Source: a virus
Lineage: Duplodnaviria; Heunggongvirae; Uroviricota; Caudoviricetes
Virus record (IMG/VR): IMGVR_UViG_2529292734_000006
DNA length: 21,898 nucleotides
Strand: one strand, 5' to 3'
The notes beneath the pieces are model-generated. The model made no database searches. It saw only the letters and a list, made by a program, of their open reading frames with translations, and was not told the origin of the DNA. The position numbers and the translations under genes are program-made. Shown piece after piece: positions 1-21,898 of the stretch (the stretch's first letter is position 1; each line of letters begins with the position of its first letter).

Positions 1-882
1 GATCATCCCGGACATACGTCCAGATGCGCCCTGTTTTCGTCTTTTTCAGGCCCGGTGCCAGTACCTTTACCGGTGTGTCGTCAGTGTGAAGCTTGCGGGT
101 ATTCATCACATAACGGTACAGGGCATCATTCAGCGGCGTCATTAACTGGCAGCACGCGTCAACCCAGTTGGAGAGTAATGCACGGCTCAGTTCGACACCC
201 TGTCGGGCAAAGATTTCACTCTGACGATACAGTGGCAGGTGTTCGCAGTATTTTCCCGTTAGCACGCGGGCAAGTAATCCAGGGCCCGCGATACCACGCT
301 CTATCGGGCGGGACGGCGCCGGTGCTTCAACGATGCAGTCACATTTTGTACAGGCTTTTTTTACCCGTTCTGTGCGGATCACTTTCAGGGCGCTGCTCAC
401 CAGTTCCAGTTGTTCTGCGCTGACTTCCCCCAGATAATCCAGCTCACCGCCACACTCCGGGCAACAGCTTTCTTCAGGCTCCAGGCGGTATATTTCACGG
501 GGGAGATGTGCCGGTAACGGACGACGATGGCGCGACTGTCGCAACTGGCGGGGAACCAGTGGGTCATCCTCACGCCCACTGTAACGATCGCTTTCCTGCT
601 CGCGTTGTTTCAGCAGGGCTTCAGCCTGTTCAACCTCACGACGCAGTTTTTCAGAACGGGTTCCGAACAGCATCCGGCGCAGTTTTTCTATCTGAGCCCG
701 CAGATGCTCTATTTCTCGCTCATCTTCTTCGATCTTTTCTTCGGCACGTGCCAGTGCAGAGCGCAGGAAGGCCTCCGTCTCTTCAACCAGACTCAGTTGC
801 TGGTCTTCTGACGGAGGGCTTCAGCCTGCTCAGAGAGCAGCCTTTCCAGCTCAGCGATGCGAATGAGGTATTTCTGACTCAT
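1..882 (-). pseudogene. IS66-family transposase TnpC (orfC), N-terminal portion; frameshifted and truncated by the window edge
   Basis: ATG at 882 (- strand) opens MSQKYLIRIAELERLLSEQAEAL... and hits TGA after about 32 codons. A different - strand frame continues ...LVEETEAFLRSALARAEEKIEEDEREIEHLRAQIEKLRRMLFGTRSEKL...CCPECGG... (leucine-zipper-like and Zn-finger motifs of IS66 transposases) to position 1. The frame change is near 797-810. Confidence 0.7.
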
Positions 883-931
883 GGCCGTTTTTATAATCCG
901 GCCCGGCGTTTTTTACAACATTGTCAGTGCG

Positions 932-1264
932 TTAAGGCGGGATGTTTTTTGGCTGACGCCAGTCCAGCTTATCGAGGAGCATTGCCAGTTGCGAGCGGGT
1001 AATGGATATCTTACCGTCACGCACCGCAGGCCAGATAAACTGACCTTCCTCAAGGCGTTTGGTGAACAGGCACAGACCATCAGCATCAGCCCACAGGATT
1101 TTAATCGTGTCTCCCCGTCGGCCACGGAAGATAAACAGGTGACCGGAGAAGGGGTTATCATCCAGCACATGCTGTATCTGCTCCCCCAGACCGTTGAAGG
1201 ATTTACGCATATCAGTAACGCCGGCAACGAGCCAGATACGGGTACCTGATGGGAGTGAAATCAT
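932..1264 (-). CDS. IS66-family accessory protein orfB (TnpB)
   Basis: 110-aa ORF; recalled match to IS66 orfB; start overlaps the orfA stop. Confidence 0.85.
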   Translation of the reverse strand: MISLPSGTRIWLVAGVTDMRKSFNGLGEQIQHVLDDNPFSGHLFIFRGRRGDTIKILWADADGLCLFTKRLEEGQFIWPAVRDGKISITRSQLAMLLDKLDWRQPKNIPP

Positions 1265-1698
1265 CGTCCCCTCCCGGTCAGCTCACGGATCAACACCGTG
1301 AGCAGCTCTGGTGAAGGATTTTCCAGCATCATTTTACCGTAATGGAATTCCACATGGCAGGAAGCTGCACAAGCAACTGATAATGCCTCCGGAGCAGGAG
1401 CATCTGTAGCACAGCGCGGGGGGTCGATAAGTTCCACTGGAACCAGAGTCGGAGAGGCCGGAAAAGATTGTGATACTGTAGGGCCTACAATAGTTGGAGG
1501 CATTCTACGAGAAATACGTCCTTCTCTTTGCCAGAGGCGTAGCCATTTAAAAATCAGGTTGTTATCAACGCCATGTTCCCGGGCCAGTTGTGCAACATTG
1601 GCATTTGGTTTCGAAGCCAGTTCAACCATATGAAGTTTAAATTCATTAGAAAATATCCGGCGGGTTCCGGAGCGCCAGTCTGTAGGTTTATCCATCAA
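1261..1698 (-). CDS. IS66-family accessory protein orfA (TnpA)
   Basis: 145-aa ORF immediately upstream of orfB with overlapping stop/start; position and size fit IS66 orfA. Confidence 0.75.
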   Translation of the reverse strand: MMDKPTDWRSGTRRIFSNEFKLHMVELASKPNANVAQLAREHGVDNNLIFKWLRLWQREGRISRRMPPTIVGPTVSQSFPASPTLVPVELIDPPRCATDAPAPEALSVACAASCHVEFHYGKMMLENPSPELLTVLIRELTGRGR

Positions 1699-1750
1699 TA
1701 GAACTCCGTCTAATTTAGAAGGAGCTCTAATTTAGTCTGCAAGGAGCAGG

Positions 1751-1780
1751 TGTTACAGACGGCATTGGCTTTACGCTTAC
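1751..1780 (-). repeat. Terminal inverted repeat of the IS66-family element (IS boundary at about 1780)
   Basis: Reverse complement of 1751-1780 is GTAAGCGTAAAGCCAATGCCGTCTGTAACA, the GTAAGCG-type terminus typical of IS66-family IRs. Exact IR length is not determinable without the other end. Confidence 0.6.
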
Positions 1781-3893: not shown

Positions 3894-4009
3894 GCTTAGT
3901 GTCTAGTCGATGGATACTCACATATTACGGTAACATTATGAAAAAATAATAGTTTTTTTAACTCTGAACCAGCAATGGTAGTGCCAGTGATGACCGAGTT
4001 AACACCATC

Positions 4010-5460: not shown

Positions 5461-5565
5461 ATTTTTATTTTTGTGGTGTCGATTTTGATTGTTTTTTGTT
5501 CATCACTAACACCGTTTGCCTAAAGTCGTTCGCAAGATGCATGTTTAAAACATTCTGGAGCGGGT

Positions 5566-6060: not shown

Positions 6061-8162
6061 TGCTGAATCAGGAAACCGCAAAGGCAGCACGAACCGATTC
6101 AGGTTATATCCTTCGCGCACCGAGACGAATGCGGGTTGCTGATGCCGTTGCTCAGTATATGCGGGTGCCCATGGGGGCAGGGAACTCAGTCCCATGGGAT
6201 CCGCTGGTGGCACCGTATGTTATTGAGCCTATGAACTGCCTGGCCTCGCGTGAATACGACGCAGTGATATTTGTTGGCCCGGCACGAACCGGCAAGACTA
6301 TCGGCCTGATTGACGGCTGGGTGATTTACAACGTGATTTGCGATCCTGCTGATATGCTGATCATTCAGATGACGGAGGAAAAAGCCCGCGAACACTCCAA
6401 AAAACGACTCGCCAGAACGTTTCGCGTCAGCCCGGAAGTGGTCAGTCGCCTGAGTCCGAACAAAAATGACAACAACGTTTATGACAGAACATTCCTTGCT
6501 GGCAACTACCTGAAAATCGGCTGGCCGTCAGTCAATATCATGTCTTCATCAGATTATAAATGCGTGGCGCTGACGGATTATGACCGTTTTCCGGAAGATA
6601 TTGATGGTGAGGGGGATGCCTTCTCTCTTGCCTCAAAACGTACCACCACATTTATGTCCAGTGGTATGACGCTGGTGGAGAGTTCCCCCGGCAGGGATGT
6701 GAAGGATGTGAAATGGCGACGGACTTCACCGCATGAGGCTCCACCAACCACGGGGATCCTGTCGCTCTATAACCGTGGCGATCGCCGTCGCTGGTACTGG
6801 CCCTGTCCACACTGTGGTGAGTATTTTCAGCCCTGCGGCGATGTGGTTGCTGGTTTCCGTGATATTGCCGATCCTGTGCTGGCAAGTGAGGCGGCTTATA
6901 TTCAGTGTCCTTCCTGTTCAGGACGGATTTTGCCTGAACAAAAACGCGAGCTGAACGGACGTGGGGTCTGGTTACGGGATGGTGAATCCATCAATGCAGA
7001 TGGCAGTCGTTATGGTGATCCCCGGCGTTCACGTATTGCGTCATTCTGGATGGAGGGTCCGGCAGCTGCTTATCAGACACTCTCGCAACTCGTTTACAAA
7101 CTGCTTACTGCAGAACAGGAATACGAGACAACCGGAAGTGAAGAGACACTCAAGACGGTTATCAATACCGACTGGGGATTACCTTATCTTCCCCGCGCCA
7201 GCATGGAGCAACGAAAAAGTGAATTGCTTGAGCAGCGGGCAGAGCCAGTTCCTTCCCGCAGTGTGCCGGATGGCGTTAATTTCCTTGTGGCGACAGTGGA
7301 TGTGCAGGCGGGACGTCATCGCCGTTTTGTGGTTCAGGTAACGGGCTATGGCAGCCGTGGCGAACGCTGGATTATTGATCGTTACAACATCACGCAGTCA
7401 TTGCGCGGTGACAGCGACGGGGAGAGCCAGCGAATTGATCCGGCCAGCTATCCGGAAGACTGGGATGTCCTGCTGACGGATGTTTTTCATAAAAGCTGGC
7501 CGCTGGCCTCCGACCCTTCTCAACAAATGCGACTGATGGCAATGGCGGTGGACTCCGGCGGTGAAGACGGGGTCACTGATAATGCCTATAAATTCTGGCG
7601 TCGTTGCCGTCGTGATGGCCTTGGTAAACGTATTTACCTGTTTAAGGGCGACAGCATCCGGCGAGCAAAACTGATCACCCGTACATTCCCTGATAACACC
7701 GGACGAACGGGCCGACGGGCGCAGGCCGCAGGTGATGTGCCGCTCTGGCTTCTTCAGACGGATGCCCTGAAAGACCGGGTGAATAACGCGTTATGGCGTG
7801 ACTCGCTAGGTCCCGGCTATGTGCATTTCCCTGACTGGCTGGGGAGCTGGTTTTACGACGAACTGACGTATGAAGAGCGGAGCAGTGACGGGAAATGGAG
7901 TAAGCCGGGTCGCGGTGCCAACGAAGCTTTTGACCTGATGGTGTATGCCGAGGCTCTGGTCATTCTGCATGGATACGAAAAGATCCGCTGGCCGGATGCA
8001 CCGGAGTGGGCGAGCCGGGAAACCTGGCTGGAGTGTGTCCCGGACAGTACCGAACCGTCACCCTCACCGGAACCGGTACCCACGCCTGTTAAAAAACAAA
8101 AACGGAAGAAAACAGTAACTGACGATGTTAACCCCTGGCTGACTTCCGGAGGATGGTTATGA
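6060..8162 (+). CDS. Terminase large subunit (lambda gpA-like; ATPase and endonuclease)
   Basis: 700 aa. Walker A-like FVGPARTGKT; Zn-finger-like CPHCGEYF...CPSCSG resembling the lambda gpA CPHCGE motif; position after the small subunit. Confidence 0.9.
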   Translation: MLNQETAKAARTDSGYILRAPRRMRVADAVAQYMRVPMGAGNSVPWDPLVAPYVIEPMNCLASREYDAVIFVGPARTGKTIGLIDGWVIYNVICDPADMLIIQMTEEKAREHSKKRLARTFRVSPEVVSRLSPNKNDNNVYDRTFLAGNYLKIGWPSVNIMSSSDYKCVALTDYDRFPEDIDGEGDAFSLASKRTTTFMSSGMTLVESSPGRDVKDVKWRRTSPHEAPPTTGILSLYNRGDRRRWYWPCPHCGEYFQPCGDVVAGFRDIADPVLASEAAYIQCPSCSGRILPEQKRELNGRGVWLRDGESINADGSRYGDPRRSRIASFWMEGPAAAYQTLSQLVYKLLTAEQEYETTGSEETLKTVINTDWGLPYLPRASMEQRKSELLEQRAEPVPSRSVPDGVNFLVATVDVQAGRHRRFVVQVTGYGSRGERWIIDRYNITQSLRGDSDGESQRIDPASYPEDWDVLLTDVFHKSWPLASDPSQQMRLMAMAVDSGGEDGVTDNAYKFWRRCRRDGLGKRIYLFKGDSIRRAKLITRTFPDNTGRTGRRAQAAGDVPLWLLQTDALKDRVNNALWRDSLGPGYVHFPDWLGSWFYDELTYEERSSDGKWSKPGRGANEAFDLMVYAEALVILHGYEKIRWPDAPEWASRETWLECVPDSTEPSPSPEPVPTPVKKQKRKKTVTDDVNPWLTSGGWL

Positions 8163-8371
8163 ATCAGAATGATATTGAAGCCATGATTCAGCGTTATACG
8201 GAAGCTGAAATGGCGGTGCTGGACGGAAAATCCGTCACTTTTAATGGTCAGCAGATGACCATGGAAAACTTATCTGAGATCCGGCAGGGGCGGCAGGAGT
8301 GGGAGCGCCGCCTTGCGGCTCTGATTACACGACGACGGGGGCATCCCGGGTACCGGCTGGCGAGGTTCTGA
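8159..8371 (+). CDS. gpW-like head-tail joining protein
   Basis: About 70 aa, ending ...RRRGHPGYRLARF like the lambda gpW C-terminus (RRRGPAGF). ATGA overlap with the terminase stop; GGAGG ribosome-binding site. An alternative start is at 8153. Confidence 0.75.
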   Translation: MNQNDIEAMIQRYTEAEMAVLDGKSVTFNGQQMTMENLSEIRQGRQEWERRLAALITRRRGHPGYRLARF

Positions 8372-9879
8372 TGGCAATTCTTGATGATGTGATTGGCGTT
8401 TTTTCACCAGGATGGAAAGCGGCAAGGCTGCGTTCCCGTGCGGTGATCCAGGCTTATGAGGCCGTAAAAACGACGCGGACACACAAAGCCCGACGGGAGA
8501 ACCGAACTGCCGACCAGTTAAGCCAGTACGGGGCCGTGTCGTTACGTGAGCAGGCTCGTTACCTTGATAACAACCACGATCTGGTCATTGGTGTATTTGA
8601 CAAGCTGGAAGAACGGGTGGTGGGGAAAAACGGGATTATTGTCGAGCCACATCCGGTATTACGCAATGGGGCCATTGCCCGTGATCTGGCAGCGGAGATA
8701 CGTACCCGATGGAGTGAATGGTCTGTCAGTCCGGAGGTCACCGGGCAGTTTACCCGTCCGATGCTGGAACGTCTGATGCTGCGTACCTGGCTGCGCGATG
8801 GTGAGGTGTTTGCCCAGATGGTTTCCGGGCGCATAAACAGCCTGACGCCTTCTGCCGGTGTTCATTTCTGGCTGGAGGCGCTTGAGCCGGACTTTATTCC
8901 CATGACCAGTGATGAGAGCAACAGGCTGAATCAGGGCGTGTTTGTTGATGACTGGGGGCGTCCCGAAAAATATCTGGTGTATAAAAGCCGTCCCGTATCC
9001 GGGCGGCAGATGGAAACCAAAGAAGTGGATGCAGAGCGAATGCTGCATCTTAAATTTGTTCGCCGTCTGCACCAGATGCGCGGGACGTCTTTGTTGTCCG
9101 GTGTGCTGATCCGCCTCAGTGCTCTGAAAGAGTATGAAGATTCTGAGCTGACTGCAGCAAGGATCGCCGCTGCTCTGGGGATGTACATCCGGAAAGGCGA
9201 CGGACAGAGCTATGAAACGGATGGTAATGACAGCAAGGAGAATGAACGCGAGCTTACCATTCAGCCAGGCATTATTTACGACGATCTGAAACCCGGCGAA
9301 GAAATCGGAATGGTGAAGTCGGATCGCCCCAATCCTAACCTTGAAACTTTTCGTAATGGTCAGTTGCGTGCCGTGGCTGCGGGCAGTCGTCTGAGTTTTT
9401 CCAGTACAGCGCGCAACTATAACGGCACTTACAGCGCCCAGCGTCAGGAGCTGGTTGAATCTACTGATGGCTACCTGATCCTGCAGGACTGGTTTATTGG
9501 TGCCGTCACCCGCCCGATGTACCGTGCCTGGCTGAAACAGGCTGTGGTATCCGGTGTTATCAGGCTACCCCGCGATCTGGACCGATCTTCACTGTATACC
9601 GCGGTGTATTCCGGACCGGTGATGCCGTGGATTGACCCTGTTAAGGAGGCTGAGGCCTGGAAAATTCAGATTCGTGGTGGAGCGGCGACAGAATCAGACT
9701 GGGTACGTGCAGGTGGTCGTAATCCAGATGATGTCAAACGTCGGCGCAAGGCCGAAATTGATGAAAACCGCAAGCTGGATCTGGTATTTGATACCGATCC
9801 GGCCAGTGATAAAGGAGGCAGCAGTGCCGCAACGAAACGACAGGAGCCGCAGCACACCGACGACCAGTCCGAAGAATAA
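8371..9879 (+). CDS. Portal protein (lambda gpB-like)
   Basis: 502 aa from the ATG that overlaps the gpW stop (TGATG); position and size typical of lambda-family portal proteins. The 526-aa track ORF starts upstream inside gpW. Confidence 0.85.
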   Translation: MAILDDVIGVFSPGWKAARLRSRAVIQAYEAVKTTRTHKARRENRTADQLSQYGAVSLREQARYLDNNHDLVIGVFDKLEERVVGKNGIIVEPHPVLRNGAIARDLAAEIRTRWSEWSVSPEVTGQFTRPMLERLMLRTWLRDGEVFAQMVSGRINSLTPSAGVHFWLEALEPDFIPMTSDESNRLNQGVFVDDWGRPEKYLVYKSRPVSGRQMETKEVDAERMLHLKFVRRLHQMRGTSLLSGVLIRLSALKEYEDSELTAARIAAALGMYIRKGDGQSYETDGNDSKENERELTIQPGIIYDDLKPGEEIGMVKSDRPNPNLETFRNGQLRAVAAGSRLSFSSTARNYNGTYSAQRQELVESTDGYLILQDWFIGAVTRPMYRAWLKQAVVSGVIRLPRDLDRSSLYTAVYSGPVMPWIDPVKEAEAWKIQIRGGAATESDWVRAGGRNPDDVKRRRKAEIDENRKLDLVFDTDPASDKGGSSAATKRQEPQHTDDQSEE

Positions 9880-9892
9880 TTCTTGGTTCAGG

Positions 9893-11851
9893 ATGCAGGC
9901 AGGTCACCAGAGTGACGCGGATATTTATATTTATGACGAGATTGGTTTCTGGGGTGTTACGGCGAAGCAGTTTATCAGTGATCTGAATGCACTGGGCGAT
10001 ATCACCCACATTAATCTCCATATTAATTCACCGGGTGGCGATGTCTTTGAAGGCATCGCCATTTTTAATGCACTGAAAACACATGGTGCGTCCATTACCG
10101 TTTATGTCGACGGTGTGGCGGCGTCAATGGCGTCGGTCATTGCGATGGTGGGAAACCCGGTCATTATGCCGGAAAACTCCTTCATGATGATTCATAAACC
10201 ATTTGGCTTTACGGGCGGTGATGCGGAGGACATGCGCACCTATGCCGACCTGCTCGATAAAGTTGAGGCGGTTCTGTTACCCGCTTATGCACAGAAAACC
10301 GGGAAAACCACCGATGAAATTGCTGCCATGCTGGCGGATGAGACCTGGATGTCCGGTGCCGAATGTCTGGCACAGGGATTTGCTGATCAGGTGACACCAG
10401 CCGTTAAGGCAATGGCATGTATTCAGTCAAAACGTACAGAGGAATTTAAAAAGATGCCGGAATCCATTCGAAATATGATTACTCCGCCACGCAACAGTGC
10501 TCCACGCGTACAGGATGATGGACCTGCAGCCTCCCGGACGCCAGTGCAGGCAGCAGCACCCGTGGTGGATGAAAACAGCATCCGTGCGCAGGTCCTGGCA
10601 GAGCAAAAAGCGCGTGTAAACGGTATTAATGATCTGTTTGCCATGTTTGGCGGGCGTTATCAGTCGTTGCAGGCTCAGTGTCTTGCCGATCCTGAATGTT
10701 CGCTGGAGCAGGCCCGCGAAAAGCTGTTGAACGAGATGGGGCGCGAGTCCACGCCATCCAATAAAAATACCCCGGCTCATATTTATGCCGGTAACGGTAA
10801 TTTTGTGGGGGACGGGATCCGCCAGGCGCTGATGGCGCGCGCCGGGTTTGAAAAAACTGAACGTGATAATGTCTACAACGGGATGACCCTGCGTGAATAT
10901 GCCCGTATGTCACTGACTGAACGTGGTATTGGTGTTTCCAGTTATAACCCGATGCAGATGGTCGGTGCGGCGTTCACACACAGTACGTCTGACTTCGGTA
11001 ATATTCTGCTGGATGTTGCGAACAAAGCCATTCTGCAGGGCTGGGAAGATGCCCCTGAAACCTATGAACAGTGGACGCGGAAAGGTCAGTTGTCTGATTT
11101 TAAAATTGCCCATCGTGTGGGTATGGGGGGCTTCAGTGCTCTGCGTCAGGTGCGTGAAGGGGCAGAATATAAATACGTCACCACCGGAGATAAACAGGCC
11201 ACTATTGCACTGGCGACCTATGGCGAGCTGTTCAGTATCACCCGTCAGGCCATTATCAATGATGATCTGAATATGCTGACCGATGTCCCGATGAAGCTGG
11301 GCCGTGCGGCGAAATCCACTATTGCCGATCTGGTTTATGCCATTCTGACGTCTAACCCGAAAATCTCCACAGATAATGTAAGTCTGTTCGATAAAGCGAA
11401 ACATGCAAACGTACTGGAGAGCGCGGCAATGGACGTGGCATCGCTGGATAAAGCCCGCCAGTTGATGCGCGTTCAGAAAGAGGGTGAGCGTCATCTGAAT
11501 ATTCGTCCTGCGTTCGTACTGGTACCGACGGCGATGGAGTCTGTTGCTAACCAGGTCATTCGCTCCTCAAGTGTCAAGGGGGCTGACATTAACGCCGGTA
11601 TTATTAACCCGGTGAAAGATTTTGCGACCGTTATTGCAGAGCCTCGTCTTGATGATAACAGCCAGACCACCTTCTACCTGGCTGCGTCCAAAGGCTCCGA
11701 TACGATTGAAGTGGCTTATCTCAACGGTGTGGATACGCCATATATTGATCAGATGGAGGGCTTCAGTGTGGATGGCGTGACAACGAAAGTGCGTATTGAC
11801 GCTGGTGTTGCGCCAGTTGATCACCGCGGCCTGGTGAAATGTACGGCGTAA
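9893..11851 (+). CDS. Fused prohead protease (ClpP/S14-like), scaffold and HK97-fold major capsid protein
   Basis: Single open frame of about 652 aa. N-terminal ClpP-like domain (YIYDEIG...INSPGGDVFEG...GVAASMASVIA...MMIHKP), a Pro/Ala-rich linker with coiled-coil-like region, and a C-terminal capsid domain of about 300 aa. The start at ATG 9893 is chosen just after the portal stop; the longer track ORF (9632) would overlap the portal by 250 bp. Confidence 0.8.
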   Translation: MQAGHQSDADIYIYDEIGFWGVTAKQFISDLNALGDITHINLHINSPGGDVFEGIAIFNALKTHGASITVYVDGVAASMASVIAMVGNPVIMPENSFMMIHKPFGFTGGDAEDMRTYADLLDKVEAVLLPAYAQKTGKTTDEIAAMLADETWMSGAECLAQGFADQVTPAVKAMACIQSKRTEEFKKMPESIRNMITPPRNSAPRVQDDGPAASRTPVQAAAPVVDENSIRAQVLAEQKARVNGINDLFAMFGGRYQSLQAQCLADPECSLEQAREKLLNEMGRESTPSNKNTPAHIYAGNGNFVGDGIRQALMARAGFEKTERDNVYNGMTLREYARMSLTERGIGVSSYNPMQMVGAAFTHSTSDFGNILLDVANKAILQGWEDAPETYEQWTRKGQLSDFKIAHRVGMGGFSALRQVREGAEYKYVTTGDKQATIALATYGELFSITRQAIINDDLNMLTDVPMKLGRAAKSTIADLVYAILTSNPKISTDNVSLFDKAKHANVLESAAMDVASLDKARQLMRVQKEGERHLNIRPAFVLVPTAMESVANQVIRSSSVKGADINAGIINPVKDFATVIAEPRLDDNSQTTFYLAASKGSDTIEVAYLNGVDTPYIDQMEGFSVDGVTTKVRIDAGVAPVDHRGLVKCTA

Positions 11852-11875
11852 ACGTCGCAGACAACAACTCTGATG

Positions 11876-11894
11876 GCCCGTAAGGGCTTTTTTT
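11876..11894 (+). terminator. Terminator-like hairpin plus T7 run downstream of the capsid gene
   Basis: GCCC-GTAA-GGGC followed by TTTTTTT, immediately after the capsid stop. A second 7-bp hairpin (CAGCCCC-TGAAC-GGGGCTG, 11906-11924) sits just before the next gene's ribosome-binding site. Confidence 0.4.
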
Positions 11895-11937
11895 GTACCT
11901 GAAATCAGCCCCTGAACGGGGCTGTGCGGAGACAGTT

Positions 11938-12261
11938 ATGGCAAAGAATTTTGTAGAAGAAGGAAAAACGGTGGCGATTGTTGCCAGTGCAGCCATCAGC
12001 AGCGGAGATCTGGTGCAGGTGGGTGATGTTTTTGCGGTGGCGCTGACCGATATTCCACAGGGAGAAACAGGCGACGGCATAACCGAAGGTGTGTTTATGC
12101 TGCCTAAGCTGAAAACGGATGACATGAAAACGGGTAAGAAGGTTTATCTGAAGTCAGGAAAAGTTCAGCTGACTAACAGCGGCTCTGATCCGCTGGTCGG
12201 GGTTGTATGGGCAGATGCCGGAACCAGTGCAGAAGAAGTGCCGGTAAAACTCAATGTCTGA
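11938..12261 (+). CDS. Small head protein (DUF2190-like; putative capsid decoration or head-completion protein)
   Basis: 107 aa from ATG 11938 with GGAGACAG ribosome-binding site; beta-rich, Gly/Val-rich; position directly after the major capsid gene. Confidence 0.5.
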   Translation: MAKNFVEEGKTVAIVASAAISSGDLVQVGDVFAVALTDIPQGETGDGITEGVFMLPKLKTDDMKTGKKVYLKSGKVQLTNSGSDPLVGVVWADAGTSAEEVPVKLNV

Positions 12262-12529
12262 TCCCTTTTCCCGGCTGGCAGCGCGTATGGATGCGATCAC
12301 GGTCAGAAAGATGGGAAAGACAGCCTCGATTAATGATGTCGATATGACTGTGATCCCGGGAGAAACACTGGCAGAGCTGAATGCTCTGTCCGGACCTGCG
12401 GTCTCTCTGGTGGTGTTTTCTTCGGGATACCGCCCACGGCGCGGGGATCGCGTTGTTTATGACGGACAACAATGGACGGTCACACGGCATGAACGTTTTA
12501 ACGGTAAGCCAATGATCTTTATTGAGTAA
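12254..12529 (+). CDS. Head-tail adaptor/joining protein (gpFII-like position)
   Basis: 91 aa; start overlaps the previous stop; the ...RRGDRVVYDGQQWTV... motif is typical of phage head-tail joining proteins; sits between head and tail modules. Confidence 0.5.
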   Translation: MSDPFSRLAARMDAITVRKMGKTASINDVDMTVIPGETLAELNALSGPAVSLVVFSSGYRPRRGDRVVYDGQQWTVTRHERFNGKPMIFIE

Positions 12530-12540
12530 AGAGGTGTGGG

Positions 12541-13119
12541 ATGAAGGGGCTTGAGAATGCCATCCGCAATCTGAACAGCCTTGATACCCGTATGGTGCCA
12601 CAGGCCAGCGCATGGGCGATAAACCGTGTGGCACAGAAAGCGGTCTCGGTTGCCACCCGGCAGGTTGCCGGGAATACCGTTGCGGGAGATAACCAGGTGA
12701 AAGGGATCCCCCTGAAACTGGTACGTCAGCGTGTCCGGGTGTTTAAAGCCAGTCCGTCAGGAAAAATGACGGCCAGGATCCGCGTTAACCGGGGCAATCT
12801 GCCCGCCATTAAGCTAGGGACAGCCCGGGTCAGACTGGCCCGGCGTGGTGGAAAACTGCAGTACCGTGGCAGTGTGCTGAAGGTGGGTAAATATCTTTTC
12901 CGGGATGCGTTTATTCAGCAACTGGCGAATGGTCGCTGGCATGTGATGCGACGTATTGATGGCAAAAATCGTTACCCCATTGATGTGGTGAAAATCCCGC
13001 TGTCCGGACCGCTGACACAGGCATTTGAAGATGCCCGCGACCACATCATTGCTGCGGAAATGCCGAAACAGCTGGGGTATGCACTGAAACAACAACTGAG
13101 GTTATGGCTGACCCGATGA
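12541..13119 (+). CDS. Minor tail protein Z-like (tail completion)
   Basis: 192 aa, the same length as lambda gpZ, located immediately before the U homolog; AGAGGTG ribosome-binding site. Confidence 0.6.
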   Translation: MKGLENAIRNLNSLDTRMVPQASAWAINRVAQKAVSVATRQVAGNTVAGDNQVKGIPLKLVRQRVRVFKASPSGKMTARIRVNRGNLPAIKLGTARVRLARRGGKLQYRGSVLKVGKYLFRDAFIQQLANGRWHVMRRIDGKNRYPIDVVKIPLSGPLTQAFEDARDHIIAAEMPKQLGYALKQQLRLWLTR

Positions 13120-13517
13120 ACCGACATACACAAATCCGCCAGGCCGTACTGGCACGCCTTCGGGAACAGTGTGGAGACAGCGCCACGTTTTTTGACGGGC
13201 TTCCGGCATTTATTGATGCGCAGGAACTGCCTGCCGTGGCGGTGTGGCTGAGTGATGCTCAGTACACCGGAAAAATGACGGATGAAGATGACTGGCAGGC
13301 TGTTCTGCATATTGCCGTCTTCATCCGGGCACAGGCACCGGATTCAGAGCTGGATATGTGGATGGAGAGCACCATTTTCCCTGCCCTGAATGATATACCG
13401 GCACTTTCCGGACTCATCGACACCCTGATCCCACTCGGTTTTAACTATCAACGTGATAATGAGATGGCCACCTGGGCGATGGCGGAAATCACGTACCAGA
13501 TCACGTACACGAATTAA
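13116..13517 (+). CDS. Tail terminator protein U
   Basis: MNRHTQIRQAVLARL...ATFFDGLPAFIDAQELPAVAVWLSDAQYTG...VFIRAQAPDSELDMWMES...IPALSGLI...ITYQITY aligns by eye with lambda gpU as recalled. ATGA overlap with the Z stop. Confidence 0.85.
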   Translation: MNRHTQIRQAVLARLREQCGDSATFFDGLPAFIDAQELPAVAVWLSDAQYTGKMTDEDDWQAVLHIAVFIRAQAPDSELDMWMESTIFPALNDIPALSGLIDTLIPLGFNYQRDNEMATWAMAEITYQITYTN

Positions 13518-13527
13518 GGAGGTGGTA

Positions 13528-14271
13528 ATGACCACACCAAATCCACTGGCAAAGACGAAAGGTGCGGGGACGACGTTCTGGATGTATACCGGCAACGGCG
13601 ATGCGTTTGCGAACCCTTTGTCGGACACTGACTGGCTGCGTCTTGCGATGGTGAAGGATCTGCAACCTGGCGAAATGACCGCTGATGCAGAAGATGACAC
13701 TTATCTCGATGATGAAGATGCAGACTGGAAAACGACAACCCAGGGGCAGAAATCCGTTGGTGATACTTCGGCGACGCTGGCCTGGCGTCCGGGTGACAGC
13801 GGGCAGAAAAAACTGGTTCAGTTGTTCGACTCCGGTGAAGTCTGCGCGTTTCGTATCAAATATCCCAACGGCACTGTTGATGTTTTCCGTGGCTGGCTGA
13901 GCTCACTGGGTAAAACCATTGCCTCAAAAGACGTGATGACCCGCACTGTGAAAATCAGCGGTGTGGGGCGTCCGTATCTGGCAGAGGAAGGCACTGAAAC
14001 CGTGAGCGTTACCGGGCTGACAGTATCACCGGCGTCTGCCAGTGTAAAAGTGGGAGCAACCACCACGCTGACCTTTACAGTAAAACCTGACGGAGCCAGT
14101 GACAAAGCGATCAGTGTGCATTCGTCAGATCCACAGACTGCCACGGTTACCCTGAACGGACTTGTGGCCACGGTAAAAGGCGTGAAGCAGGGCAGTGTCA
14201 GCATTGTGGGCATGACCGCTGACGGGAATTTTGTGGCTGTGACTGCGGTGACTGTCAGCGCAGCAGGTTAA
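13528..14271 (+). CDS. Major tail protein V with C-terminal Ig-like (Big_2) domain
   Basis: MTTPNPLAKTKGAGTTFWMY...NPLSDTDW...YLDDEDADW...IKYPNGTVDVFRGW closely matches lambda gpV as recalled. The C-terminal roughly 90 aa is Ig-like (TVSVTGLTVSPASASVKVGATTTLTF...). Strong AAGGAGGTGG ribosome-binding site. Confidence 0.9.
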   Translation: MTTPNPLAKTKGAGTTFWMYTGNGDAFANPLSDTDWLRLAMVKDLQPGEMTADAEDDTYLDDEDADWKTTTQGQKSVGDTSATLAWRPGDSGQKKLVQLFDSGEVCAFRIKYPNGTVDVFRGWLSSLGKTIASKDVMTRTVKISGVGRPYLAEEGTETVSVTGLTVSPASASVKVGATTTLTFTVKPDGASDKAISVHSSDPQTATVTLNGLVATVKGVKQGSVSIVGMTADGNFVAVTAVTVSAAG

Positions 14272-14291
14272 CAGGACGATACTCATCATTT

Positions 14292-14315
14292 GCCCCGGTT
14301 ATGCGGGGCTTTTTT
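14292..14315 (+). terminator. Rho-independent terminator-like hairpin after V (GCCCCG-GTTATG-CGGGGC plus T6)
   Basis: 6-bp GC stem with 6-nt loop followed by TTTTTT, located between V and G. Confidence 0.5.
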
Positions 14316-14331
14316 GCAGGTGGAGAACATG

Positions 14332-14718
14332 ATGTTTCTGAAACAGGACACGTTTAATTATGAAAAACAGTCCGTGGTGCTCAGTGAGCTGTCCGGGCTG
14401 CAGAGAATTGAATATCTGACGTTTGTTCAGCAGCGAACGGCAAAGTTTGATGCCGGGGAGGGAGAACTGCCGGAGGCTGAACGACAGATTGCTTTTCTGC
14501 GGATGGGGATGGATATCAATGCCTGGCTGGTTTCCCGCTCACTGTGGAATGCGGATCAGTCTAAGGATGTAGAGACGCTTTGCGCATCCGTTATTACAAC
14601 ATGGTCGTATGATGCCCTGGGTGCGGGGGCGGAGATGGTTCTGTCGCTGAGCGGTATGGGGGCCATTGATAATGCCGTGGATGATGAGCATGAGGCGCTG
14701 ACGCCGGAAAAGTCCTGA
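14332..14718 (+). CDS. Tail assembly chaperone G
   Basis: MFLKQDTFNYEKQSVVLSELSGLQRIEYL... matches lambda gpG (MFLKTESFEH...LSELSALQRIEHL) as recalled. An alternative ATG is at 14329. Confidence 0.85.
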   Translation: MFLKQDTFNYEKQSVVLSELSGLQRIEYLTFVQQRTAKFDAGEGELPEAERQIAFLRMGMDINAWLVSRSLWNADQSKDVETLCASVITTWSYDALGAGAEMVLSLSGMGAIDNAVDDEHEALTPEKS

Positions 14719-14726
14719 CGCGGGAA

Positions 14727-15056
14727 ATGCAGTTTGTCATGCGGCTTGCCCGGGAGTTCCGGCGGGCAGACTGGCGGCGGATGCTGTCGGAAATGTCGGC
14801 CACTGAGCTTGGTGAGTGGGGCGATTATTTCCGGATGCAGAGCTTCAGTGATGTGTGGATGGATGCGCAGTTTGCCTCGCTGAAGGCATTGATCGTGAGA
14901 ATGGTGTCCGGCAGCAGTGATGCTGCGGTGGCTGATTTCAGCCTTTTACCGGAAGAGAACGGGATACCGGAGCGAACGGACGAAGAACTGATGCATCTTG
15001 GGGAAGGTATTTCCGGAGGTGTGCGTTATGGACCAGATAGCCAACCTGGTCATTGA
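14727..15056 (+). CDS. Tail assembly protein T, expressed as a G-T fusion by -1 programmed ribosomal frameshift
   Basis: The T frame is -1 relative to G and open from 14694. Candidate slip site GGAAAAG at 14706-14712, just before the G stop. Architecture conserved with lambda G/GT. Coordinates are given from the first ATG in the T frame; the true fusion product would span 14332..15056. Confidence 0.7.
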   Translation: MQFVMRLAREFRRADWRRMLSEMSATELGEWGDYFRMQSFSDVWMDAQFASLKALIVRMVSGSSDAAVADFSLLPEENGIPERTDEELMHLGEGISGGVRYGPDSQPGH

Positions 15057-18000
15057 TTTGGGGATTGATGCGGCAGAGTTTAAAAATGAAATTCCCCGTA
15101 TCAAAAACCTTCTGAATGGTGCAGCCAGCGATGCAGAACGGTCTTCTGCCCGTATGCAGCGTTTTATGGAGCGTCAGACTCAGGCCGCCCGGCAGACAAC
15201 GCAGGCAGCTTCTTCGGCTGCAACAGCCGCATCCGTCCATGCGCAGACGGTGGAGAAGAACGCACAGGCTCATGAACGCATGGCCCGCGAGGTGGAGAAA
15301 ACCCGCCAGCGCATGGAGGCACTGAGCCAGAAAATGCGCGAGGAACAGGCGCAGGCCATGGCTCTGGCGGAGGCTCAGGATAAAGCGGCTGCTGCGTTTT
15401 ATCGTCAGATTGACAGTGTGAAACAGGCCAGTGCGGGGCTGCAGGAATTACAGCGTATTCAGCAGCAGATCCGACAGGCCAGAAACAGTGGCGGGATTGG
15501 TCAGCAGGATTATCTGGCGCTGATTTCTGAGGTTACTGCGAAAACCCGTGTTCTTACACAGGCTGAGGAAGAGGCTACCCGACAGAAAGTGGCGTTTATC
15601 CGTCAGCTTAAAGAGCAGGCAACCCGCCTGAATCTTTCATCTTCTGAGTTGCTTCGTGCTAAGGCAGCCCAGCTGGGGGTAAGCAGTGCTGCAGAAGTGT
15701 ATATCCGCAAAATGGAGCAGGCAGGAAAAGCCACGCATTCGCTGGGTCTGAAAAGTGCAGCAGCCCGCCAGGAGATAGGCGTTCTGATAGGTGAACTGGC
15801 CCGCGGCAATTTAGGGGCGCTGAGGGGATCCGGGATAACGCTGGCTAACCGTGCCGGATGGATAGACACACTGATGTCACCGAAAGGCATGATGCTTGGC
15901 GGGGTTATTGGCGGTATTGCCGCGGCCGTCTATGGTCTGGGTAAAGCCTGGTATGACGGTCAGAAGGAGGGGGAAGAATTTAACCGCCAGTTGTCGCTGA
16001 CGGGGCATTATGCCGGAGTCACTGCCGGGCAGCTGTGGACGCTCAGTCGTGCTATTTCCGGGAATGGTATCACGCAACATGCTGCAGCCGGTGCGCTGGC
16101 TCAGGTGGTGGGGAGTGGTGCATTTCGTGGAAACGATATCGGTATGGTGGCGAGAGCTGCCGCACAGATGGAGCGATCGGTTGGCCAGTCGGTCAGCGAT
16201 ACCATAAATCAGTTTAAGCGGCTGAAGGATGATCCTGTAAATGCCGCGAAGGCTCTGGACAATGAGCTGCATTTTCTTACTGCCACTCAGCTTGAGCAGA
16301 TACGCGTCCTTGGGGAGCAGGGGCGGTCCAGTGATGCTGCACGGATAGCCATGTCTGCACTGGCAGAGGAAACCGGTCGGCGTACTGCGGATATTGATAA
16401 TAACCTCAATGCGCTTGGCAGTACGCTGAAGTATCTGTCTGATTTGTGGAGTCGTTTCTGGGATGCGGCCATGAATATTGGTCGTGAAGACTCGCTGGAT
16501 GAACAGATTGCCGCTTTACAGGAGAAAGTGTCGCGGGCGAAAAGACTCCCCTGGACGGCATCATCTTCTCAGGTTGAATACGATCAGCAGCGTCTTAACG
16601 ATCTTCAGGAGAAAAAACGCCAGAAGGATTTGCAGGATGCAAAAGAGCAGGCAGAGCGGAATTATCAGGAGCAACAGAAACGCCGTAATGCTGAAAATGC
16701 TGCACTGAACCGGATGAATGAAACGGAAGCAGCACGACATCAGCGTGAAATTGCGCGTATTAATGCCATGCAGTACGCCGATCAGGCTGTCAGGGATGCG
16801 GCGATACAACGTGAAAATGAACGTTACGAGAAAGCCCTGGCATCCGGTAAGAAAAAACACGCGAAACCCGTAATGATGAGGCCACCCGGTTATTGCTGCA
16901 GTACAGTCAGCAACAGGCACAGGTGGAAGGACAGATTGCTGCTGCCAGACAGTCAGCAGGCATTGCCACGGAAAGGATGACAGAAGCGCATAAACAGCTT
17001 CTGGCTCTGCAGCAGCGCATCAGCGACCTGGACGGGAAAAAACTGACGGCAGATGAAAAGAGTGTGCTGGCCCGTAAAGATGAACTGATTCAGGCACTGA
17101 CGCTGCTGGATGTAAAACAGCAGGAGCTTCAGAAACAGACGGCACTCAACGAGCTGAAGAAAAAAACAATTCAGCTGACCAGTCAACTGGCTGAAGAAGA
17201 GCGCGCTCAGCGTCAGCAACATGACCTGGATATCGCCACGGTGGGTATGGGTGATCAGCAGCGACAGCGATATCAGGTACAACTGAGTCTTCGCCAGAAA
17301 TACCAGCAACAGCTGGAGCAGTTGAGGCGGGATAGTGAGCAGAAAGGGACATATAACACGGATGACTACAGAAAGGCCGAGCAGGCGCTGACGGAGAGCC
17401 TGAACCGACAACTGAATGAGAATCGCCGTTACTGGCAACAGCTTGAAGTTGTGCAGGGTAACTGGAAAAACGGAGTCCTGCGTGCATTTCAGGATTTTAC
17501 CGTGGATGCAGATAATACGGCAGAAACAGCAGAACAGGTGTTCTCGTCAGCCTTCAGCAACATGGGAAATGGCCTGGCAACTTTTGTCACTACCGGCAAA
17601 CTCAATTTCAAATCCTTCACCTCTTCTGTGCTGTCAGATATGGCGAAAATCCTGGCGCAGGCAACCATGATGAAATCGATAAAAGGGATTGGCAGTGTAC
17701 TGGGATTTGATCTCAGCAGCCTTTCCCTGAATGCCAATGGGGGGATTTATCAGTCTGCTGATTTGAGTCGTTACAGTGGCACGGTGGTTAACCGTCCGAC
17801 GTTTTTTGCTTTTGCAAAAGGCGCGGGTGTGATGGGGGAAGCGGGACCTGAAGCCATTCTGCCATTGCGTCGTGGTGCTGACGGTAAGCTGGGGGTTGTG
17901 GCGGATATTGGGGGTTCAGGTATGGCGATGTTTTCCCCGCAGTACAACATCGAGATCAATAACGATGGCACGAACGGGCAGATAGGTCCGGCTGCCCTGA

Positions 18001-18092
18001 AGGTGGTTTATGACCTTGGGAAAAAAGCGGCAGCGGACTTTATGCAACAGCAGGCCCGTGATGGTGGTCGGTTAAGTGGAGCATATCGGTAA
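15028..18092 (+). pseudogene. Tail tape measure protein H, interrupted by a -1 frame disruption near 16865-16880
   Basis: Two overlapping ORFs (15028..16980 and 16893..18092) both match lambda gpH as recalled: the N-terminal part (DLVIDLGIDAAEF...) and the C-terminal part (...INNDGTNGQIGPAALKVVYD...RDGGRLSG). The frames join at ...KKKHAKPV / NDEATRLLLQYSQQ..., consistent with one missing base in cccgtaatgatgag. ATG 15028 has a GGAGGTG ribosome-binding site. Confidence 0.8.
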
Positions 18093-18421
18093 TGGAGACG
18101 TTTCACTGGAAAGTGCGCCCGGATATGAATGTGGTATCAGAGCCGAAAGTGGTGACAGTGAAGCTGGGCGATGGTTATGAACAGCGTCGTGCGGCGGGAC
18201 TGAATAACCAGTTGTCGATTTACAGCGTGACGATACGTGTTCGTAAATGTGAACACCCATCTTTAAAAGCCTTTCTGGAACGGCACGGTGGCGTCCGCGC
18301 ATTTCAGTGGACGCCACCTTATGACTGGAAGCCGATCAGGGTGGTTTGTCGTAAATGGTCGGCAAGCGTGGGGGCGTTGTGGGTAACCATAACGGCAGAT
18401 TTTGAACAGGTCGTGGCATAG
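18092..18421 (+). CDS. Minor tail protein M
   Basis: METFHWKVRPDMNVVSEPKVVTVKLGDGYEQR...LERHGG...WTPPYDW... matches lambda gpM as recalled; TAATG overlap with the H stop. Confidence 0.85.
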   Translation: METFHWKVRPDMNVVSEPKVVTVKLGDGYEQRRAAGLNNQLSIYSVTIRVRKCEHPSLKAFLERHGGVRAFQWTPPYDWKPIRVVCRKWSASVGALWVTITADFEQVVA

Positions 18422-18430
18422 GAGTCTCTG

Positions 18431-19129
18431 ATGCAGGATATTCCACAGGAAACACATCATGAGACGACACGCCTCACTCAGTCAGCCCAGGTGGTGCTCT
18501 GGGAAATCGATCTGACAGTGGTCGGTGGAGAACGTTATTTTTTCTGTAATGAGCAGAACGATAAAGGTGAGCCGGTCACCTGGCAGAGGCGACAGTATCA
18601 GGCGTATCCCATTCAGGGGACGGGATTTGAACTGAACGGCAAAGGCAGTGCTGCCCGTCCGACACTGACGGTTTCTAACCTGCACGGCATGGTCACCGGG
18701 ATGGCGGAAGACCTGCAGAGTCTGGTCGGAGGAACGGTGGTCCGGCGTAAGGTTTACGCCCGTTTTCTGGATGCGGTGAACTTCGTCAACGGAAACAGTG
18801 ACGCCGATCCGGAGCAGGAGGTGATCAGCCGCTGGCGCATCGAGCAGTGCAGCGAACTGAGCGCGGTGAGTGCCTCTTTTGTACTGTCCACGCCGACGGA
18901 AACGGACGGCGCTGTTTTTCCGGGGCGCATCATGCTGGCTAATACCTGCACCTGGACCTATCGCGGTGATGAGTGCGGTTATCACGGTCCGGCGGTCGCG
19001 GATGAATATGACCAGCCGACCTCCGATATCACGAAGGATAAATGCAGCAAATGCCTGAGCGGCTGTAAGTTTCGCAATAACGTCGGCAACTTTGGCGGCT
19101 TCCTTTCCATTAACAAACTTTCGCAGTGA
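18431..19129 (+). CDS. Minor tail protein L (Fe-S cluster tail tip protein)
   Basis: 232 aa, the same length as lambda gpL; C-terminal Cys cluster (CTWTYRGDECGYHG...DKCSKCLSGC). Confidence 0.85.
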   Translation: MQDIPQETHHETTRLTQSAQVVLWEIDLTVVGGERYFFCNEQNDKGEPVTWQRRQYQAYPIQGTGFELNGKGSAARPTLTVSNLHGMVTGMAEDLQSLVGGTVVRRKVYARFLDAVNFVNGNSDADPEQEVISRWRIEQCSELSAVSASFVLSTPTETDGAVFPGRIMLANTCTWTYRGDECGYHGPAVADEYDQPTSDITKDKCSKCLSGCKFRNNVGNFGGFLSINKLSQ

Positions 19130-19134
19130 ATCCC

Positions 19135-19878
19135 ATGACAGAGACAGAATCAGCGATTCTGGCGCACGCCCGGCGATGTGCGCCAGCGGAGTCGTGCGGC
19201 TTCGTGGTGAGAACACCGGAGGGGGAAAGATATTTTCCCTGCGTGAATATCTCCGGTGAGCCGGAGGAGTATTTCCGGATGTCGCCGGAGGACTGGCTGC
19301 GGGCAGAGATGCAGGGTGAGATTGTGGCGCTGGTCCACAGTCACCCCGGTGGTCTGCCCTGGCTGAGTGAGACCGACCGGCGGCTGCAGGTGCAGAGTGA
19401 TTTGCCGTGGTGGCTGGTTTGCCGGGGGGCGATTCACAAGTTCCGCTGTGTGCCACATCTTTCCGGGCGGCGCTTTGAGCACGGGGTGACGGACTGTTAC
19501 ACGCTGTTCCGGGATGCTTACCATCTGGCGGGGATTGAGATGCCGGATTTTCATCGCGAGGATGACTGGTGGCGTAACGGTCAGAATCTCTATCTGGATA
19601 ATCTGGAGGCTACAGGGCTGTATCAGGTGCCGTTGTCAGCGGCGCAGCCGGGCGATGTGCTGCTGTGCTGTTTTGGTTCATCGGTGCCGAATCATGCCGC
19701 CATTTACTGTGGTGACGGCGAGCTGCTGCACCATATTCCTGAACAACTGAGCAAACGAGAGAGGTACACCGACAAATGGCAGCGACGCACACACTCCCTC
19801 TGGCGTCACCGGGCATGGCACGCATCTGCCTTTACGGGGATTTACAACGATTTGGCCGCCGCATCGACCTTCGAGTGA
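19135..19878 (+). CDS. Tail assembly protein K (MPN/JAB metalloprotease plus NlpC/P60 peptidase domains)
   Basis: JAMM-type motif ALVHSHPGG...SETD and a downstream Cys/His pair (GVTDCYTLF, PNHAAIY); position between L and I. An alternative GTG start at 19126 overlaps the L stop. Confidence 0.8.
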   Translation: MTETESAILAHARRCAPAESCGFVVRTPEGERYFPCVNISGEPEEYFRMSPEDWLRAEMQGEIVALVHSHPGGLPWLSETDRRLQVQSDLPWWLVCRGAIHKFRCVPHLSGRRFEHGVTDCYTLFRDAYHLAGIEMPDFHREDDWWRNGQNLYLDNLEATGLYQVPLSAAQPGDVLLCCFGSSVPNHAAIYCGDGELLHHIPEQLSKRERYTDKWQRRTHSLWRHRAWHASAFTGIYNDLAAASTFE

Positions 19879-20424
19879 AAACGGGGTCCGAAGCCATCCG
19901 GGCGCTGGCCATGCAGATCCCGGCGTTTCGTCAGAAACTGAGCGACGGCTGGTACCAGGTACGCATTGCCGGGCGTGATGCAGGTGAAACCGAATTGTCT
20001 GCCCGTCTTAATGAGCCGCTGGCAAATGGTGCCGTGATCCACATCGTGCCGCGTCTGGCGGGAGCTAAAAGTGGCGGTGTGTTTCAGGTGGTGCTGGGGG
20101 CGGCGCTGATTGCGGTGGCATGGTGGAACCCTGTGGGCTGGCTGGGTGCCGCGGCTGTATCGGGCATGTATGCGGCAGGGGCCAGTATGATCCTGGGCGG
20201 AGTGGCGCAGATGCTGGCACCGAAAGCCAGGACGCCCACGGCAGCAAGTACAGATAACGGCAAAACAGAACACCTATTTCTCCTCACTGGATAACATGGT
20301 TGCCCAGGGCAATGTTCTGCCCGTTCTGTACGGTGAAATGCGCGTGGGGTCGCGGGTGGTCTCTCAGGAGATCAGCACGGCAGACGAAGGGGATGGTGGT
20401 CAGGTTGTGGTGATTGGTCGCTGA
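19776..20424 (+). pseudogene. Tail assembly protein I, with a +1 frame disruption at the A4 run 20262-20265
   Basis: The N-terminal 160 aa (MAATHTLPLASPGMARICLYGDLQRFGRRIDLRVKTG...) end prematurely at 20294. A different frame continues NTYFSSLDNMVAQGNVLPVLYGEMRVGSRVVSQEISTADEGDGGQVVVIGR to 20424. Both parts match lambda gpI as recalled; one extra A in ggcaaaacagaac explains the break. Confidence 0.75.
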
Positions 20425-20442
20425 TGAAAAACGTTTTATGTG

Positions 20443-20464
20443 AAACCGCCTCCGGGCGGTTTTG
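20443..20464 (+). terminator. Hairpin with T-rich tail in the I-J intergenic region (AAACCGCC-TCCG-GGCGGTTT), possible attenuator or terminator
   Basis: 8-bp stem and 4-nt loop followed by TTTTGTCGTTT, about 20 nt upstream of the J ribosome-binding site. Confidence 0.3.
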
Positions 20465-20484
20465 TCGTTTATGGAGCGTGAGGA

Positions 20485-21898
20485 ATGGGTAAAGGCAGCA
20501 GTAAGGGGCATACTCCGCGCGAAGCGAAGGACAACCTGAAGTCCACGCAGTTGCTGAGTGTGATCGATGCCATCAGCGAAGGGCCGGTTGAAGGTCCGGT
20601 GGATGGATTAAAAAGCGTGCTGCTGAACAGTACGCCAGTGCTGGACACTGAGGGGAATACCAACATCTCCGGCGTCACGGTGGTGTTCCGGGCCGGTGAG
20701 CAGGAGCAGACACCGCCGGAGGGATTTGAATCCTCCGGCTCCGAGGCGGTGCTGGGTACGGAAGTGAAATACGACACGCCGATCACCCGGACCATCACGT
20801 CGGCAAACATTGACCGACTGCGTTTTACCTTCGGCGTGCAGGCACTGGTGGAAACCACCTCAAAGGGGGACAGGAATCCGTCGGAAGTCCGCCTGCTGGT
20901 TCAGATACAACGTAACGGTGGCTGGGTGACGGAAAAAGACATCACCATTAAAGGCAAAACCACCTCACAGTATCTGGCCTCGGTGGTGGTGGGTAACCTG
21001 CCGCCGCGCCCGTTCAATATCCGGATGCGCAGGATGACGCCGGACAGCACCACAGACCAGCTGCAGAACAAAACGCTCTGGTCGTCATACACCGAAATCA
21101 TCGATGTGAAACAGTGCTACCCGAACACGGCACTGGTCGGCGTACAGGTGGATTCGGAGCAGTTCGGCAGCCAGCAGGTGAGCCGTAATTATCATCTTCG
21201 CGGGCGCATTCTGCAGGTGCCGTCGAACTATAACCCGCAGACGCGACAATACAGCGGTATCTGGGACGGAACGTTACAACCGGCATACAGCAACAACATG
21301 GCCTGGTGTCTGTGGGATATGCTGACCCATCCGCGCTACGGCATGGGGAAACGTCTTGGTGCGGCGGATGTGGATAAATGGGCGCTGTATGTCATCGGCC
21401 AGAATTGCGACCAGTCGGTGCCGGATGGCTTTGGTGGCACGGAACCGCGTATCACCTGTAATGCGTACCTGACCACGCAGCGCAAGGCGTGGGATGTGCT
21501 CAGTGATTTCTGCTCGGCGATGCGCTGTATGCCGGTATGGAACGGGCAGACGCTGACGTTCGTGCAGGACCGGCCATCGGATAAGGTGTGGACCTATAAC
21601 CGCAGTAATGTGGTGATGCCGGATGATGGCGCGCCGTTCCGCTACAGCTTCAGCGCCCTGAAGGACCGTCATAATGCCGTTGAGGTGAACTGGATTGACC
21701 CGAATAACGGCTGGGAGACGGCGACAGAGCTTGTGGAGGATACGCAGGCCATTGTCCGTTATGGTCGTAACGTCACGAAGATGGATGCCTTTGGCTGTAC
21801 CAGCCGGGGGCAGGCACACCGCGCCGGGCTGTGGCTGATTAAAACGGAGCTGCTGGAGACGCAGACCGTGGACTTCAGCGTGGGCGCAGAAGGGCTTC
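20485..21898 (+). CDS. Tail tip/host-specificity protein J, N-terminal 471 codons (continues beyond the window)
   Basis: MGKGSSKGHTPREAKDNLKSTQLLSVIDAISEGP... is near-identical to lambda gpJ as recalled; GAGG ribosome-binding site; the frame is open to the window end. Confidence 0.9.
   Translation, partial: MGKGSSKGHTPREAKDNLKSTQLLSVIDAISEGPVEGPVDGLKSVLLNSTPVLDTEGNTNISGVTVVFRAGEQEQTPPEGFESSGSEAVLGTEVKYDTPITRTITSANIDRLRFTFGVQALVETTSKGDRNPSEVRLLVQIQRNGGWVTEKDITIKGKTTSQYLASVVVGNLPPRPFNIRMRRMTPDSTTDQLQNKTLWSSYTEIIDVKQCYPNTALVGVQVDSEQFGSQQVSRNYHLRGRILQVPSNYNPQTRQYSGIWDGTLQPAYSNNMAWCLWDMLTHPRYGMGKRLGAADVDKWALYVIGQNCDQSVPDGFGGTEPRITCNAYLTTQRKAWDVLSDFCSAMRCMPVWNGQTLTFVQDRPSDKVWTYNRSNVVMPDDGAPFRYSFSALKDRHNAVEVNWIDPNNGWETATELVEDTQAIVRYGRNVTKMDAFGCTSRGQAHRAGLWLIKTELLETQTVDFSVGAEGL

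Follow-up and report, generated by a model that had tools for sequence, protein, structure and literature searches.

Between positions 15028 and 18092, the window (the whole 21,898-nucleotide stretch of DNA that was analysed) carries a lambda-H-like tape measure protein (TMP) gene that, on translation, is open in two different frames, with the switch from one to the other falling within 16840-16900. The sequence as given holds no continuous TMP open reading frame (ORF), the gene being split at 16852-16857 (Table 1). In the window, as in annotated relatives, the G and T chaperone genes lead into the TMP gene, which is followed by homologues of M, L, K, I and J.

The window is the entire contig AIHL01000045.1 from the 2012 draft genome of Escherichia coli DEC14B (GCA_000250435.2); the prefix AIHL01 is named as DEC14B by a paper that used another contig of the assembly (PMC11914072). 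Judged by its sequence, the prophage is a mEp460/Qin-like lambdoid phage. Over 16.4 kb (5541-21898), 3 substitutions and 2 indels distinguish the window from phage mEp460_ev081, and just 2-8 substitutions, none of them private, separate it from any single close relative. One substitution that had seemed private, 8883T, is synonymous and present in 5 IMG/VR contigs, making it a standing polymorphism. It proved useless as a lineage marker, since it occurs in more distant prophages, and the window is therefore without a truly private substitution.

At its other end, the contig begins inside a partial IS66-family element that lies within ydfR (Table 1). Strain 33F4 carries a different IS66-family element (93.5% identical) approximately 50 nt further along the same gene, suggesting that ydfR is an IS66 insertion hot spot.

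Table 1 Coordinates of the features discussed, with the state of each run in the window and in the sister contig AIHM01000042.1
Feature	Coordinates	Strand	Window	Sister
IS66-family element, partial	1..1780	-	contig begins inside it; lies 26 nt into ydfR, with the holin and lysozyme genes on either side	same junction
Two +/-1 T-run changes, near 806 and 945	806..950	-	affect the IS66-family transposase and tnpB; intact copies taken as reference	
ynfN	3938-4000			
ynfN start, three run contractions	3941..3996	+	A6 (A7 in most relatives), T7 at 3953-3959, single G at 3996	T8 for T7
Run at 3953	3953		T7	T8
Run at 3996	3996		G	GG
Run at 10304	10304		A4	A3
G chaperone gene	14332-14718		separate from T	
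Candidate G/GT slippery stretch	14704-14712		CCG GAA AAG	
T chaperone gene	14727-15056		separate from G	
Upstream TMP ORF	15028..16980	+	ATG at 15028, stop at 16978-16980; 650 codons = 610 native residues + 40 out-of-frame (HAKPVMMRPPGYCC...PRKG, then stop); GenBank EHX83856.1	
-1 frame with the remaining TMP	16851..18092	+	open directly after TAA 16848-16850, stop at 18090-18092; native residues 611-1021 from 16857	
Lesion in the first A-run	16852..16857	+	A6 (A7 in intact homologues); context GGT AAG AAA AAA (A)CA CGC	A7
Called downstream ORF	16977-18092	+	371 aa; EHX83857.1	
Second A7 run of the TMP gene	17160..17166	+	A7, intact	A6
Lambda-I-like tail assembly gene	19776-20294		172 codons	
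Run truncating the lambda-I-like gene	20262..20265	+	A4 (A3 in all relatives)	A3

The frame break in the tape measure gene

Both parts of the gene resemble lambda-type tape measure proteins. The N half matches the Pfam family TMP_2 (E=1.9e-49), and hits to TMP_4 (E=3.4e-17) and Tape_meas_lam_C (E=1.3e-22) lie in the C half. The C half is also similar to chain H of the solved tail structure 8iyk (8iyk_H, annotated 'Tape measure protein', 853 aa; E=1.5e-22), a similarity that was computed for this half only and in which the C-terminal part alone aligns (residues 181-409 of the C half with 607-851 of 8iyk_H).

The frame break is present in the deposited sequence as a missing A in an A7 run. The letters at 16840-16881 of the window are gca tcc ggt aag aaa aaa cac gcg aaa ccc gta atg atg agg, with the codons AAG AAA AAA(A) CAC, whereas intact homologues read AAG AAA AAA ACA CGC. 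When the window is aligned here with E. coli E2865 and phage mEp460_ev081, the only gap falls in the poly-A run. Complete E. coli genomes yielded 1839 matching records and, among the matches listed, all align 552 bases to the window's 551. With one A added at the run, the gene becomes a 3066-nt ORF of 1021 codons, and the repaired protein has 100% identity to the TMPs of E. coli KE48, 20Ec-P-124 and phage mEp460_ev081, the last of which was deposited as a phage genome. This exact protein sequence is recorded on 479 contigs and a close variant on at least 1000. As judged from these comparisons, that a single added base recreates a common intact protein is far beyond chance.

In the repaired protein, the residues ASGKKK are followed at the true junction by TRETRNDEATRLLLQ, so that the join begins ASGKKK/TRETRNDEATR. 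A reading of the letters and their translations, made without database searches (the sequence-only reading), had described H as split in two frames with both halves gpH-like, and translation and the Pfam matches agree with it, the switch lying inside the interval that it gave. Its intact length of about 1021 codons is likewise the one reached by inserting a single A. It was right that one base is missing but not about where: the site it proposed, cccgt(t)aat at about 16869, is approximately 15 nt too far downstream, and alignment with intact homologues, the check that it had recommended, puts the indel in the A-run at 16852-16857. The same alignment moves the junction from AKPV/NDEATRLLLQ, as first drawn, to ASGKKK/TRETR; the residues HAKPV of the upstream ORF are out of frame already and are not native.

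The stop of the upstream ORF and the start codon of the 371-aa ORF share the tetranucleotide ATGA at 16977-16980, with GGAAAGG preceding it. The frameshift created this overlap by chance, but it could permit some reinitiation if the A6 allele is real. We considered and rejected a split TMP made as 610+40 aa plus 371 aa by reinitiation at the ATGA, as native residues 611-650 would be absent and the arrangement is not conserved.

A TMP-like sequence was also encountered in an unrelated setting: an unannotated 237-bp stretch of the 254-kb Aeromonas phage AP1 record (MT713136.1, 251326-251563) is 98.7% identical to the E. coli TMP gene; a contaminant or the end of a chimeric assembly may account for it.

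One-base run changes in the window and in sister assemblies

Differences between the window and its nearest relatives are mostly changes of +/-1 in mononucleotide runs (at 806, 945, 3953, 3996, 16852 and 20262), and the private differences of the contig are single-base homopolymer indels throughout. Those at 806 and 945 break the transposase and tnpB frames of the window's IS66 copy. Near the other end, the extra A at 20262 leaves the lambda-I-like gene with 172 codons, compared with 215 in relatives (region 19776-20424). This A4 was found in none of 3343 E. coli records, in no IMG/VR sequence and not in the sister contig described below; a look-up of the full-length 172-aa truncated product gave no match, and the 127-aa call of the gene was found in AIHL01000045.1 only.

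Within ynfN, three contractions (A7 to A6, T8 to T7 and GG to G) leave the gene reading ATG AAA AAA TAA. The window's sequence across ynfN occurred in 0 of 2139 matching E. coli records; GG stands at 3996 in every aligned relative, and the single G was not seen elsewhere among the assemblies examined. Parts of this combination do occur in other strains, with the A6 common to the sister, A6 together with T7 in strain 04-00955, and T7 alone in strain 127, where it is annotated 'frameshifted'.

Look-ups of the ydfR remnant and then of a capsid sub-ORF led to contig AIHM01000042.1 (GCA_000250455.2), which, by its adjacent accession, is presumably from a sister strain of DEC14B's collection. The window and this contig share the IS66-ydfR junction and have 99.957% identity over 20.7 kb, with 3 substitutions and 6 one-base homopolymer indels between the two (Table 1). 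The A6 at 16852 is not reproduced in this contig, which has A7 there. Its TMP gene (its 14224-17288) is broken at the second A-run (window 17160) and called as 716 + 281 aa, and its protease-capsid gene (its 9090-11047) is split by a change from A4 to A3 at the equivalent of window 10304. The two A7 runs are the longest homopolymers of the TMP gene.

AIFJ01000054.1, a third contig whose accession begins in a similar way, shows the first run as A6 and has a T gene that is called short, and split L and K genes. Overall, the AIHL, AIHM, AIFJ and AIFB assemblies that were examined contain scattered split or frameshifted genes, and the aligned ones show homopolymer frameshifts.

The A6 allele in other genomes

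We compared an 81-bp query centred on the run with 5426 complete RefSeq E. coli genomes. It was found at 1985 places in 1817 genomes, with a full-length 100% match to A6 at one place, in strain A2 (platypus). In this genome (NZ_CP028772.1, 2457990-2465070), 5 of 9 consecutive tail genes are marked 'frameshifted' and dozens of small indels distinguish the region from the window, which indicates that this 'complete genome' is an error-rich assembly. IMG/VR contains one A6 copy versus at least 120 A7 copies and gave no match to an A8 allele, and exact-match searches of GTDB species representatives and JGI metagenome contigs returned no A6. At the second A7 run, there was one A6 case in IMG/VR.

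The 650-aa product is also encoded in three read-set assemblies, SRR27214280, ERR15665845 and SRR27683434. In the first, A6 is the sole difference from 20Ec-P-124 over 13.6 kb; in the second, it is the sole difference from the nearest relatives over 3.8 kb; and in the third, it is accompanied by 2 substitutions. A6 is thus found in three otherwise clean read-set assemblies and on at least two haplotypes. Because these assemblies are independent and otherwise clean, A7 to A6 probably can be a real allele, and somewhere in nature it is likely to recur as a genuine hot-spot allele.

Relatives also carry premature TMP stops that were created by a single substitution, at codon 642 (in the 4.43-Mb contig of GCA_964041475.1 and in ERR4034129) and at codon 649 (in SRR23851449). 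These nonsense alleles, which homopolymer miscalls cannot explain, look like genuine prophage decay, and hence TMP decay does occur in this prophage family.

Sequencing error, slippage or recoding

We consider a sequencing or assembly error to be the probable cause of the TMP split in the contig, with a probability of roughly 80% given the sequence comparisons above. That sister assemblies from a single project each carry their own random homopolymer indels points to sequencing error, and a biological origin would need several independent frameshifts in essential genes in each near-identical sister, with only 3 substitutions between them. Random homopolymer miscalls made by the sequencing chemistry explain this pattern directly, and we infer that the indels originated in sequencing or assembly rather than in the bacterium. 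The DEC14B gene would then carry A7 (AAG AAA AAA ACA), which was recorded as A6 in the 2012 draft; the miscalled A6 would shift the frame and lead gene callers to emit a 650-aa and a 371-aa protein, while a continuous 1021-codon TMP ORF is most probable for the real strain. An assembly indel had been only the second thought of the sequence-only reading, and it is the one that we favour, in view of at least five other +/-1 homopolymer indels on the contig and the A7 of the sister; its headline, a truly broken TMP that abolishes tail assembly, is in our judgement the less likely of its two alternatives.

That headline corresponds to a genuine loss of function, in which replication slippage from A7 to A6 in the DEC14B prophage would leave a 610-residue fragment with 40 nonsense residues and no tails, and which we regard as unlikely. 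Slippage would fit an indel in a mononucleotide run that disrupts an ORF, in a gene whose two A7 runs are its longest homopolymers, and independent assemblies show A6 on several haplotypes, in three cases with no further indel over 4-14 kb; yet it accounts for only about 1 of the 1985 places in complete genomes and for 1 copy versus at least 120 in IMG/VR. The nonsense codons 642 and 649 in the TMP of relatives are in keeping with decay, as is the IS66 element that already interrupts the late operon and might relax selection on tail genes, but the sister with the same IS66 junction has A7, which confines the change to DEC14B at best. Alongside A6, the contig has five or more other private one-base indels and no truly private substitution. 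Published mutation-accumulation estimates put indels in wild-type E. coli at roughly a tenth of the frequency of substitutions, and an indel-only pattern would consequently be very unusual for real mutation.

A recoding or leaky site would keep some function in the split gene, with ribosomes slipping by -1 on AAA AAA, or an A added during transcription, giving low-level, throttled or phase-variable TMP. A -1 shift after the second AAA would restore exactly the wild-type GKKK-TRETR. Furthermore, tetramers of the A_AAA type are frameshift motifs in E. coli, where A7/T7 runs are under-represented in genes, possibly as a result of slippage (PMC4066793), and the G-run of the herpesvirus thymidine kinase gene provides a case of low-level compensatory frameshifting over a homopolymer indel (PMC5009743). 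The two-frame layout is, however, not conserved, as seen from the same counts in complete genomes and IMG/VR and from the A7 of the sister, and the zero frame AAG AAA AAA CAC presents G_AAA_AAA with no X_XXY_YYZ heptamer, only the A_AAA tetramer fitting. The predicted fold of the 93 nt downstream (16858-16950) is not more stable than that of shuffled sequence, with a minimum free energy (MFE) of -22.3 kcal/mol versus a shuffle mean of -24.3 kcal/mol (z=+0.69), and on reading the sequence upstream of the run no Shine-Dalgarno-like stimulator was seen. Heptamer motifs without stimulators yield 2-10 times a background of about 0.055% (PMC4066793). If the base was simply miscalled, nothing is left to recode, and we give this explanation almost no credence. 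We rejected a programmed frameshift at the A-run, given how rare the split is, the missing canonical heptamer and the lack of a downstream structure; the sequence-only reading, which had noted that none is known at this position in lambda H, was right on this point.

A combination of these ideas, in which A6 is real in some strains, both A7 runs serve as mutational switches that turn tail production off and on, and -1 slippage supplies a trickle of infectious phage, strikes us as very doubtful.

If the break is an artefact, DEC14B has an ordinary mEp460-like prophage with an intact TMP, and EHX83856.1 and EHX83857.1 are halves of one protein. For data quality, pseudogenes in assemblies of the AIHL, AIHM, AIFJ and AIFB type need read support before they are read as prophage decay. 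If the mutation is real, this is another prophage inactivated at a homopolymer hot spot, a process that is already familiar, and A6 would abolish tail assembly save for a leak that we put at less than 1%. Under every reading the finding is ordinary and carries little biological weight.

Compared with lambda gpH (853 aa; 8iyk chain H), the window's TMP occupies the same gene position and has the same C-terminal Tape_meas_lam_C domain, but is longer (1021 versus 853 aa) and has an N half of the Pfam TMP_2 family. The TMPs of mEp460_ev081 (LR597641.1, VUF53242.1) and of E. coli prophages (WP_000372023.1) are identical to it over 1021 residues once the A is added, and the flanking head and tail genes of mEp460_ev081 have 99.97% DNA identity to the window; the difference is that the window has A6 rather than A7 and is accordingly annotated with two proteins, EHX83856.1 and EHX83857.1.

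The programmed -1 frameshift of lambda G/GT likewise changes the frame by -1 in a tail-assembly gene, on an A-rich slippery stretch read by tRNA-Lys. The slippery sequence in lambda is G GGA AAG. No exact GGGAAAG was found near the window's G/T junction; the G chaperone gene there ends in CCG GAA AAG TCC TGA (14704-14718), with the T frame open in -1, and its candidate slippery stretch is a tetramer of the A_AAG type with imperfect P-site re-pairing. G/GT frameshifting is kept across long-tailed phages, and both of its products are needed (PMC5009743), whereas the H break occurs in a tiny minority of copies, with no useful zero-frame product and no stimulator. The homopolymer miscalls of draft assemblies, which annotation pipelines mark as 'frameshifted', are likewise changes of +/-1 in runs that fall over unrelated genes and differ between sisters and, like such miscalls, the changes in the window are absent from thousands of other genomes; between the two there is no difference of substance.
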